64,000 nucleotides of DNA from Minisyncoccota bacterium (GTDB lineage Bacteria > Patescibacteriota > Minisyncoccia > Phycocordibacterales > CAIJYI01), in the NCBI GenBank assembly GCA_023229825.1, contig JALNYN010000007.1, positions 2,596-66,595 on the forward strand, written 5' to 3'. This document shows, one piece after another, positions 61,558 through 62,473 of the stretch (its first letter is position 1; each line of letters opens with the position of its first letter). The position numbers and the translations under genes are program-made. The notes beneath the pieces were generated by a model, which saw nothing but the letters and a program-made list of their open reading frames with translations, had not been told where the DNA came from and ran no database searches.

Positions 61558-61740
61558 CCGCAGGTAGGAATTTCTCTCCTTACTGGAGCAGTACACCTTT
61601 CCGATTTGTTCGGATTGCTATCCTCACAAATAGCGGAGAAGGTTTTCGAATCCTACCGCGCGAGACAAGCAGTTGTCTCGCTCGCGGAGCAATACAAAAA
61701 AGACACTTTATATAAAGTGTCTTTTTTGTATTGCTCCGCG
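61558..61740 (+). ncRNA. structured repeat element copy 2, abutting the tRNA-Asn 3' end; terminates in a 28-bp perfect palindrome
   Basis: Homologous to 57270-57475. Contains ggttttcgaatcctaccgcgcgag, which mimics the tRNA-Asn T-arm plus acceptor in the opposite orientation. A direct repeat of the tRNA 3' end (tcctacctgcggagcc, minus sense) lies at 61551-61567. The palindrome at 61683-61740 overlaps the tRNA acceptor 3' strand. Confidence 0.5.
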
Positions 61741-61771
61741 GGTAGGATTCGAACCTACGACCAATCGGTTA

Positions 61772-62359
61772 CACTTGTCCTTGTGTTACCACTAGGGGTG
61801 GACTATATCATCTCCTTGTTTGTCTTGCGACAAGTTTAGGAGTGGGGCGCTTCGGGCTGAAATGTTTTTTAAAATATTCCAGGCCTACTCCCTTGCGGGA
61901 TAGTCTCTGAACCTTTCCTGCTTCGCTAAAGCTTCACAGGACTTGGCTGCTGATTGCCCCTCAATTACTCTCGGGGTTTCCAGCAATTCACCTCATTTTT
62001 CAACCTAAGTTTCCTTAGGAAGCTGCGTGAGACCATCGTGCACTTCCATGTGACAGTTTGCGCACAAGAGAACGCATTTCGCGATCTCCTTTTGAATTTT
62101 TTCCCACGATTTCGTGAGCCCTCTAGCCGACAACCCAAAATCTTTTTTCTTTGGATCTCGGTGATGAAAACTCAATGCCCGAGGGCATTTATCGTAACCG
62201 CAGATTGCACACTTATCACCTTTATATTTGCGTGCCATTTCTCGAAGCTTTTTACGGCGTTCAGAAACAGCCTTTTTCAAATACTCTGCACGATCGGCAT
62301 AAGTTCTTGTTTCTGGCATATACATCGTAGTATACCATAGAAAAACTTATTACGTGTCC
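61772..62359 (-). mobile_element. group I intron (about 588 nt) with internal HNH endonuclease ORF
   Basis: Conserved core elements on the minus strand in canonical order: P AATTGCTGGAAA (61988-61977), Q AATCAGCAGCC (61955-61945), R GGTTCAGAGACTATCCCGC (61913-61895), S GATGATATAGTCCAC (~61812-61798). The 5' exon ends in U and the intron ends in G. Confidence 0.7.
62005..62325 (-). CDS. HNH homing-type endonuclease (intron-encoded)
   Basis: 106 aa. CAICGY...HHRDP...N...LLCANCH HNH/His-Me finger motif. Located between the 5' splice site and the P element of the intron. Confidence 0.75.
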   Translation of the reverse strand: MYMPETRTYADRAEYLKKAVSERRKKLREMARKYKGDKCAICGYDKCPRALSFHHRDPKKKDFGLSARGLTKSWEKIQKEIAKCVLLCANCHMEVHDGLTQLPKET

Positions 62360-62473
62360 ACAGCCGATTGCTCTACCGCTGAGCTACCGCGGAATGTTGT
62401 GTAGCTCTTTGTGCTTTTTGGCACTTTTTGATAATAGCAAAAAAACTCCCGAAATGCAACGAACTGGAGGGAT

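Follow-up and report, generated by a model that had tools for sequence, protein, structure and literature searches.

A tRNA-Asn(GUU) gene of Patescibacteria, very probably split at position 35/36 by a group I intron with an HNH endonuclease gene in its P1 loop

Results

The split tRNA gene and its splice register

The 64,000-nucleotide (nt) stretch of contig JALNYN010000007.1 from a Minisyncoccota bacterium, analyzed here over its whole length and referred to as the window, carries on its minus strand a tRNA-Asn(GUU) gene that is divided into three parts: (i) a 5' exon of 34 nt (TCCGCGGTAGCTCAGCGGTAGAGCAATCGGCTGT, 62393-62360), which covers tRNA positions 1-35 and ends in CUGU with U35 as the last base, (ii) an insert of 588 nt (62359-61772) with an open reading frame (ORF) for an HNH endonuclease of 106 amino acids (aa), and (iii) a 3' exon of 38 nt (TAACCGATTGGTCGTAGGTTCGAATCCTACCCGCGGAG, 61771-61734), which covers positions 36-73, starts with UAA and terminates in the discriminator G, the CCA end not being encoded. 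The exon limits were set by an ARAGORN analysis of the joined exons and by comparison with homologues. They agree exactly with the two halves that the initial annotation, made from the sequence alone, had placed about 590 nt apart on this strand. The proteins encoded in the window have exact and near-exact matches in metagenome-assembled genomes of Candidatus Paceibacterota, which assign the organism to that group of Patescibacteria. No other tRNA was found in the 64 kb by ARAGORN with default settings, which also miss the split gene, and the same stretch holds no second copy of the HNH gene.

For the joined exons, ARAGORN draws the standard cloverleaf of tRNA-Asn(GUU) with an acceptor stem of 7 base pairs (bp) and arms of 4, 5 and 5 bp, formed by the same stems that had been listed before. 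In annotated Escherichia coli records, the joined exons match tRNA-Asn genes best, at 88% identity over 60 nt. To place the gene among its relatives, we used a set of 81 loci, comprising the window and the 80 best of at least 520 genomes that encode a homologue of the HNH protein (L001-L080). Sixty-six introns were resolved in this set at first and 9 more once variant D-arms were allowed, giving 75 in total. One homologous locus, L067, has an uninterrupted tRNA-Asn(GUU) gene with acceptor and T arms identical to those of the window.

Formally, two splice registers are possible, as both junctions contain TGT (CTGT/GG ... AAGTG/TAA, with slashes at the splice sites). Shifting the 588-nt intron upstream by two bases yields CU/UGUAA and a tRNA-Thr(UGU) gene interrupted after U33, at 33/34. 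This is the placement reported for the window by ARAGORN with introns allowed (option -i), in the form Thr(tgt) i(33,588). In the window, the Thr register likewise has a U before the 5' splice site and a G at the intron end, and the exon sequence UCGGCU could form 6 bp with GGUUGA (62005-62000) as the P1 helix. The homologues decide against it. All 66 first-resolved introns follow an exon with CUGU at its end, terminate in G and are followed by an exon that begins with UAA, and the exon preceding each of the 9 later-resolved introns likewise ends in CTGT. The Thr register is excluded because the base that it requires as a terminal G is G in 43 of the 66 introns, the other 23 having A, whereas the G before UAA is invariant. 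Furthermore, GGUUGA is the 3' strand of a P2 hairpin supported by covariation, and the tRNA body matches annotated tRNA-Asn genes. The calls made by ARAGORN change from one homologous locus to another (Asn, Thr, His, Glu and Ser). The same mis-call was documented by Nakagawa et al. (PMC13011429), who sequenced a homologue as spliced at 35/36. The tRNA-Thr(UGU) reading is effectively refuted, with hardly any probability left to it. The junctions of the homologues, the matches to E. coli tRNA-Asn and the uninterrupted gene of L067 together place the insertion at 35/36 of tRNA-Asn, and the split position, the final U of the exon and the final G of the intron are those originally described.

Conserved core of the group I intron

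The initial annotation had interpreted the insert as a group I intron, and the Rfam covariance model of this class agrees. The match to RF00028 (61779-62093, minus strand; model positions 1-253) scores 89.5 bits (E=1.5e-21), well above the gathering threshold of 50 bits, and is the only gathering-level match in the 64 kb, no other Rfam family reaching its threshold there. To examine the fold, ribozyme cores of 53 homologues were aligned from the internal guide sequence to the 3' exon, and a model of 62 pairs in 12 helices was tested against them, comprising P2, P3, P4, P5, P6, P6a, P7 (a pseudoknot), P7.1, P7.2, P8, P8a and P9. All of its elements lie on the minus strand.

The model begins with the P2 hairpin CCUAAG-GAAA-CUUAGG (62004-62019; helix 1), which has compensatory changes in all 6 pairs. 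It is followed by the 5' strand of P3 (61989-61995; helix 2, 98.9% paired), the P4-P5-P6-P6a domain (61911-61985; helices 3-6) and the 5' strand of P7, the guanosine-binding helix (61901-61907; helix 7), which is 100% paired and invariant. The segment 61854-61900 holds P7.1 (61900-61889; helix 8, compensatory changes in 2 of 4 pairs) and P7.2 (61885-61854; helix 9, in 6 of 6 pairs). The remaining elements are the 3' strand of P3 (61843-61849), P8 with P8a (61812-61842; helices 10 and 11), the 3' strand of P7 within GAUAUAGUCC (61800-61805), the P9 hairpin (61779-61796; helix 12) and the terminal guanosine of the intron, omega-G (61772), which is invariant in the 66 first-resolved introns. As extra, peripheral helices that separate P7 from the 3' strand of P3, P7.1 and P7.2 are typical of subgroup IA and mark the intron as IA-like.

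Over the 53 cores, 92.0% of the alignment cells hold standard pairs, against 35-47.5% after the 3' partners were slid by 1-3 columns. Compensatory change on both sides was observed in 44 of the 62 pairs. The model attains a covariation score of 0.482, compared with 0.05-0.12 for the slid partners and 0.152 for shuffled alignments, and none of the 500 shuffles attains the observed value. The P, Q, R and S elements that had been recognized in the right order by eye correspond to the 5' strand of P4, the 3' strand of P4 with P6, the joining segment J6/7 with the 5' strand of P7, and J8/7 with the 3' strand of P7, respectively, and are supported by this covariation. The J6/7 dinucleotide (UC or GU; 61910-61909 in the window) changes in step with the variant of P4 (GCU/AGC or CGG/CCG; 61984-61982/61951-61949) in 50 of the 53 cores, a pattern consistent with the classic base-triple signature of group I introns. 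Every invariant position of the core is intact in the window.

P1 helix and the position of the HNH gene

The internal guide sequence had not been identifiable by eye. A scan for pairing with the exon end, combined with the homologues, locates it as GCAGCU at 62021-62026, within the Thr-Gln-Leu codons near the end of the ORF and immediately before P2, which is in turn followed by P3. GCAGCU is predicted to form the 3' strand of P1 by 6 contiguous pairs with the exon sequence GGCUGU (62360-62365), including the U.G wobble made by U35 at the splice site. The motif GCAGC(U/C) is found in all 75 resolved introns, always upstream of P2 and then P3, and the predicted P1 is 4 bp long in 49 homologues and 5-7 bp long in 26. 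Of the P1-P9 fold anticipated for the intron, P2-P9 are backed by covariation and P1 is placed by its sequence and position. Three other guide candidates were rejected: GGUUGA as a strand of P2 (see above), GCAGCC at 61950 as the 3' strand of P4 plus P6, and GCGGUU at 62201 as a mid-ORF sequence without a counterpart in ORF-less introns.

The 5' splice site and the guide sequence are 5-27 nt apart (median 8) where the intron lacks an ORF, and 318-354 nt apart (median 330) where it carries one. For example, the ORF-less intron of L001 reads, from the splice site onward, AAGUUAGUU-GCAGCU-UU-(P2)-...-GAGGUG-AAUUGCUGG. Because the guide sequence follows the ORF in the window, and ORF-less homologues have it near the splice site, the HNH gene is located in the loop of P1 (L1).

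The HNH gene and its cassette

The HNH ORF (62325-62005, minus strand) was identified from profile matches and invariant residues. It lies between the 5' splice site and P3/P4, as first described, and its UAG stop falls in the 3' strand of P2; many homologues begin at the second AUG (62319). Among phage HNH families, the protein matches PHROG 2255 with E=3.5e-30, and a profile search of solved structures returned only a weak match, to the HNH (En) domain of the group II intron maturase 6ME0 (E=0.005). In 15 aligned homologues, residues C39, C42, H54, H55, C88, N90, C91, H92 and H96 are invariant. The four cysteines, arranged as two zinc-binding CxxC pairs, and the His/Asn/His residues are present at all 81 loci, except for one copy truncated by a contig end. 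More than 737 protein clusters are related to it. At least 520 GTDB species genomes, nearly all of them Patescibacteria, encode such a protein, with the best 80 homologues at 62-85% identity.

The closest HNH protein among the matches listed is that of L001 (85% aa identity), a locus at which the gene is free-standing. Comparison of the two loci delimits a cassette. The exons (95% identical) and the ribozyme (86% identical) are collinear, whereas the HNH segment that corresponds to window positions 62350-62033 is 79% identical at the nucleotide level but occupies the opposite strand upstream of the tRNA in L001. In the window, this cassette (62033-62350, minus strand) comprises an upstream hairpin with a -10-like motif and most of the ORF. 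Past the end of the cassette (62032-62005), the reading frame crosses the guide sequence and enters P2, the 5' strand of which completes the codons for TQLP (aCG CAG CUU CCU). Intron-borne homologues nearly always end in TQLP (rarely TQPP, SQLP or MQLP), and the free-standing ones have diverged at these codons (SILP, TLLP, TKIP, VQLK, RKIK, TVL and others). The C-terminal TQLP is thus imposed by the RNA, because intron-borne ORFs keep it and free-standing ORFs diverge exactly there. Together with the stop codon, which P2 likewise supplies, it is a clear example of protein sequence set by an RNA element. In the published intron of GCA_016699425.1, the equivalent guide and P2 RNA is read in another frame (...LRSLSEK...).

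Both candidate AUG starts are covered by a hairpin, UGGUAUA...UAUGCCA (62314-62337, minus strand), the 5' arm of which, TGGTATACT, contains an extended -10-like box. The motif TGGTATA(C/A)T occurs at 63 of the 81 loci, including those with free-standing copies. The hairpin is predicted at 69 of 74 loci, with alternation of U.G and U-A pairs and a few swaps of G-C to A-U. These conserved features suggest that the TGGTATACT hairpin may act both as a promoter and in translational control of the HNH gene. In the T4 td/I-TevI system, read-through transcripts reportedly form a hairpin that hides the translation start of the intron ORF, and transcripts from a promoter located at the hairpin are reported to be unable to form it and to be translatable. 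The hairpin at 62337-62314 has the same geometry; the likeness is drawn from the sequence, with modest statistical support for the hairpin itself.

Palindrome downstream of the tRNA gene

The 3' end of the tRNA gene is part of a perfect palindrome of 58 bp (61683-61740), which is formed by 7 terminal nt of the tRNA together with a 22-nt trailer and includes a U-rich, terminator-like hairpin. Beyond an inserted 25-nt hairpin (61657-61684), the T arm has an inverted second copy (61645-61657 versus 61741-61753). In L003, L041 and L055 (3 of the 71 other loci), the terminator is followed by a similar inverted repeat of the acceptor 3' strand.

Functional gene or decaying relic

Several observations weigh against a working intron with an expressed endonuclease gene. 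P3 of the window has one A.C mismatch, which is also present in L043 and L076. In P1, no more than 4 pairs are invariant (the window has 6), and covariation offers no test of this helix, since CUGU never changes and the exon varies at position 31 (G, C or A) with no matching change in the guide sequence. The window has at best a weak P10 (0-1 pairs), lacking the UUA that precedes the guide sequence in many homologues and could pair there with the exon UAA. The match of the ORF to the Pfam HNH family (PF01844; 19.9 bits, E=8e-4) falls just below the curated cut-off of 21.4 bits. The same start-codon hairpin forms in 43% of shuffled controls, and a scan for consensus -35/-10 promoters found none at the hairpin and none that would serve the tRNA gene or the HNH gene. 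Finally, the census of tRNA-Asn genes spans the 64-kb window, and a second, uninterrupted gene may exist elsewhere in the genome.

Some of these points would fit a decaying relic, in which the intron splices poorly or not at all, leaving a tRNA pseudogene, and the cell relies on another, intact tRNA-Asn gene beyond the window. Besides the P3 mismatch and the weak P10, this explanation could draw on a P1 that has to close over a loop of 333 nt and on the odd palindrome overlapping the 3' end of the tRNA. Yet the invariant positions of the core are all intact, the mismatch in P3 is shared with two homologues, the HNH ORF is complete with all of its catalytic residues, and an equally long L1 occurs in 60 other ORF-bearing homologues. 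We consider the relic very improbable. A tRNA-Asn(GUU) gene split at 35/36 by a group I intron with an L1-borne HNH gene is the reading that we hold with high confidence.

Arrangements of the HNH gene in homologous loci

Comparison of the 81 loci revealed that the HNH gene is located inside the intron in 61 of them, outside of it in 15 and beside an uninterrupted tRNA-Asn gene in one (L067), the remaining 4 being cut by contig ends. At the 15 outside loci (L001, L023, L031, L032, L034, L048, L050, L055, L064, L068, L069, L073, L076, L077 and L080), the HNH gene is at about 1501-1800 of the locus in most cases and the neighboring tRNA-Asn gene carries an ORF-less 35/36 intron of 192-344 nt; an intron was detected at the Rfam gathering level in 10 of 14 such loci sampled and not in L067. 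Four configurations of the outside genes were observed: (i) divergent upstream, (ii) upstream on the same strand, (iii) downstream on the same strand, and (iv) convergent. These genes lie 14-284 nt from the tRNA, one of them overlapping it by 12 nt, and at all 77 resolved loci the HNH gene is either within the intron or at most 284 nt from tRNA-Asn.

The outside copies keep all catalytic residues. Their nonsynonymous divergence (dN) from intron-borne sisters is 0.09-0.17 and their synonymous divergence (dS) is saturated, so the dN/dS ratio has no value for pairs of intron-borne and free-standing genes. In a neighbor-joining tree of the HNH proteins, the outside state is scattered and requires at least 11 parsimony changes, an approximate count given a protein of 100 aa.

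An intron-less tRNA-Asn allele had been suggested as something to look for in related genomes, and one was found at L067 (1501-1916), with the HNH gene 36 nt upstream of the uninterrupted tRNA-Asn(GUU) (1843-1916). This allele may be immune to the enzyme, or the enzyme may be tolerated. Two loci with the HNH gene and tRNA-Asn intron of the type found in the Candidate Phyla Radiation (CPR) come from metagenome-assembled genomes labeled as other than Patescibacteria, L016 (JAMPXW010000003.1, Burkholderiales) and L076 (JBEBJM010000055.1, Nitrospira sp.), which could reflect either mis-binning of contigs or real transfer.

Relatives in phage tRNA arrays

Viral relatives of the HNH protein were collected from IMG/VR contigs (80 loci, L081-L160). 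All of them are more distant, at 43-63% identity to it, and nearly all lie within phage tRNA arrays. No group I intron was found at these loci by a motif search of all 80 or by Rfam in 20 of them, and a split tRNA flagged by a regular expression in L129 was spurious. A tRNA lies within 1.5 kb at 70 of the viral loci; at 40 of these, the closest one is an uninterrupted tRNA-Asn, with a median gap of 63 nt. When the proteins are clustered at 80% identity, tRNA-Asn is nearest in 18 of 38 clusters, compared with approximately 12% expected (binomial p=8e-8).

We infer a homing role for the HNH protein because its gene lies in the intron or within 284 nt of tRNA-Asn at the 77 resolved loci and because its phage relatives stand beside tRNA-Asn. 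As an alternative, the protein may not be, or may no longer be, a selfish homing endonuclease and may serve the host or the intron, either as a splicing helper or as another nuclease. In the course of the homing cycle, an endonuclease gene that is purely selfish would usually be expected to decay once it is fixed, whereas this family is under strong purifying selection (dN of 0.03-0.17, with dS high or saturated), is retained in so many species genomes at the identities given above, and stays linked to tRNA-Asn even outside the intron. On the other hand, we know of no maturase of the HNH family. The tight linkage to one gene in many configurations is the classic pattern of free-standing homing endonucleases, and so is the location of the phage relatives in tRNA arrays beside intron-less tRNA-Asn genes. 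An ORF-less homologue, moreover, splices alone in vitro (PMC13011429). A host or intron function in place of homing therefore seems unlikely to us, albeit less so than the relic discussed above.

Discussion

Proposed mechanism

In the mechanism that we propose, the split gene would be transcribed as a pre-tRNA, in which the guide sequence GCAGCU, approximately 330 nt downstream of the exon sequence GGCUGU, would pair with it to form P1, leaving the U.G wobble at the splice site. Once the P3-P9 core has folded, exogenous guanosine would attack after U35, and the terminal G (61772) would then direct exon ligation to yield CUGUUAA, the anticodon loop of tRNA-Asn. By analogy with the homologue that splices in vitro, the copy in the window is probably self-splicing. 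The HNH cassette (62350-62033) is an insertion in L1, with the reading frame continuing into the guide sequence and P2. The HNH gene is probably expressed from its own -10-like element, within the hairpin that would mask the start codon in the read-through pre-tRNA. Its product probably cuts intron-less tRNA-Asn genes, whereupon the intron, the cassette or both would be copied into the cut allele by homing. Both the target of the endonuclease and the control of its expression are predicted here from sequence features.

On a wider scale, the observations could be explained by a tRNA-Asn-specific HNH lineage that is free-standing in phage tRNA arrays and that, in CPR bacteria, moved repeatedly between the flanks of tRNA-Asn genes and the P1 loop of the 35/36 intron. 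We put this scenario forward tentatively, as one with somewhat less than an even claim to be correct. If it holds, many of the tRNA-Asn introns of Patescibacteria that appear to be endonuclease-less would be served in trans by a neighboring HNH gene (collaborative homing), and the published inference of little mobility for tRNA-Asn introns would have to be revised; as judged from the present loci, the limited mobility ascribed to those introns that lack a homing endonuclease gene may be too strong a conclusion. The family would then also represent a natural series leading from a free-standing endonuclease gene to an intron ORF with its C-terminus fused to the guide sequence.

Significance

At the locus in the window, the main value of the analysis is in annotation. 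Because standard tools either miss the split gene or call it tRNA-Thr, the tRNA complements and completeness estimates of CPR genomes are distorted, a point already made in PMC13011429. The HNH-bearing form of the intron, with homologues in at least 520 species genomes, is far commoner than four cases in complete genomes suggest, and the HNH gene lies outside an ORF-less intron at about one-fifth of the sampled loci. Together, the comparative observations provide a testable example of collaborative homing and of invasion by endonuclease genes in cellular tRNA genes.

Comparison with known systems

The initial annotation had implied that a tRNA-Asn intron at 35/36 was new. This does not hold, as introns of this class have been described in Patescibacteria by Nakagawa, Amikura, Omae and Suzuki (2026, mSystems 11:e01536-25; bioRxiv 2025; PMC13011429). 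In 95 complete genomes of Patescibacteria, these authors found 35/36 group I introns in 15 tRNA-Asn(GUU) and 3 tRNA-Asp genes. A homologue from GCA_016700035.1 self-splices in vitro in a GTP-dependent manner, with the ligated tRNA-Asn sequenced, and mutation of omega-G to C blocks ligation. Subgroup IA accounts for 25 of the 28 introns at 35/36, and none of the tRNA introns of Patescibacteria belongs to subgroup IC, whereas most tRNA introns outside this phylum do. HNH genes (PF01844) were reported in four tRNA-Asn introns, and a few 35/36 introns also in Nitrospirota and Pseudomonadota. By the account in PMC13011429, the 35/36 site was first listed by Williams 2020 (bioRxiv 10.1101/2020.01.27.920355). 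The paper makes no mention of the guide sequence, of the position of the ORF in L1 or of free-standing HNH genes.

The element in the window is another member of this published class, and its kind is already known. It shares with the class the host tRNA, the insertion site, the phylum, an IA-type core with P7.1 and P7.2 and, as in some members, an HNH gene; the mis-call of tRNA-Thr(UGU) at 33/34, made there by ARAGORN/tFind, is likewise the same. The published Paceibacteria intron of GCA_016699425.1 has the layout of the window: the exon end CTGT, GGACAT, the TGGTATAC hairpin, an ORF beginning MPDTRTYADR..., GCAGC, P2 and P3. The experimentally validated intron, an ORF-less one of 234 nt from Saccharimonadia, starts with UAAAG-GCAGCC-(P2)-...GGGUGAAUUG; it is 62% identical to the window ribozyme, and its guide sequence, P2, P3 and P4 follow one another as in the window. 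Over the three published sequences compared, the identity to the window ribozyme is 61-66%. The copy in the window comes from a draft or metagenomic genome and lies outside the 95 complete genomes of that study.

Other bacterial group I introns in the anticodon loop that contain homing endonuclease genes are known from the cyanobacterial tRNA-fMet(CAU), with I-Ssp6803I of the PD-(D/E)XK family, and tRNA-Arg(CCU), with a LAGLIDADG enzyme. These differ from the intron in the window by the tRNA, the position (33/34 and 36/37, respectively), the endonuclease family and the phylum.

The free-standing and phage relatives of the HNH gene are the only part of this work that goes beyond the literature. 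Collaborative, or trans, homing has been described in phages for T4 mobE with the nrdB intron and for F-CphI of S-PM2 with the psbA intron (Hausner, Hafez and Edgell 2014, PMC3984707; Wilson and Edgell 2009, PMC2790892). The arrangement of these systems is that of the 15 homologous CPR loci (out of 81) with an outside HNH gene, and mobE is an HNH gene as well. Trans homing in the phages is situated in protein-coding genes, whereas here it would concern a cellular tRNA gene, and in the window itself the endonuclease gene is intron-borne. With these differences, the distribution of the HNH gene among CPR bacteria and phages may match, by analogy, the pathway of the two phage systems, in which collaborative homing in trans is followed by invasion of the intron.

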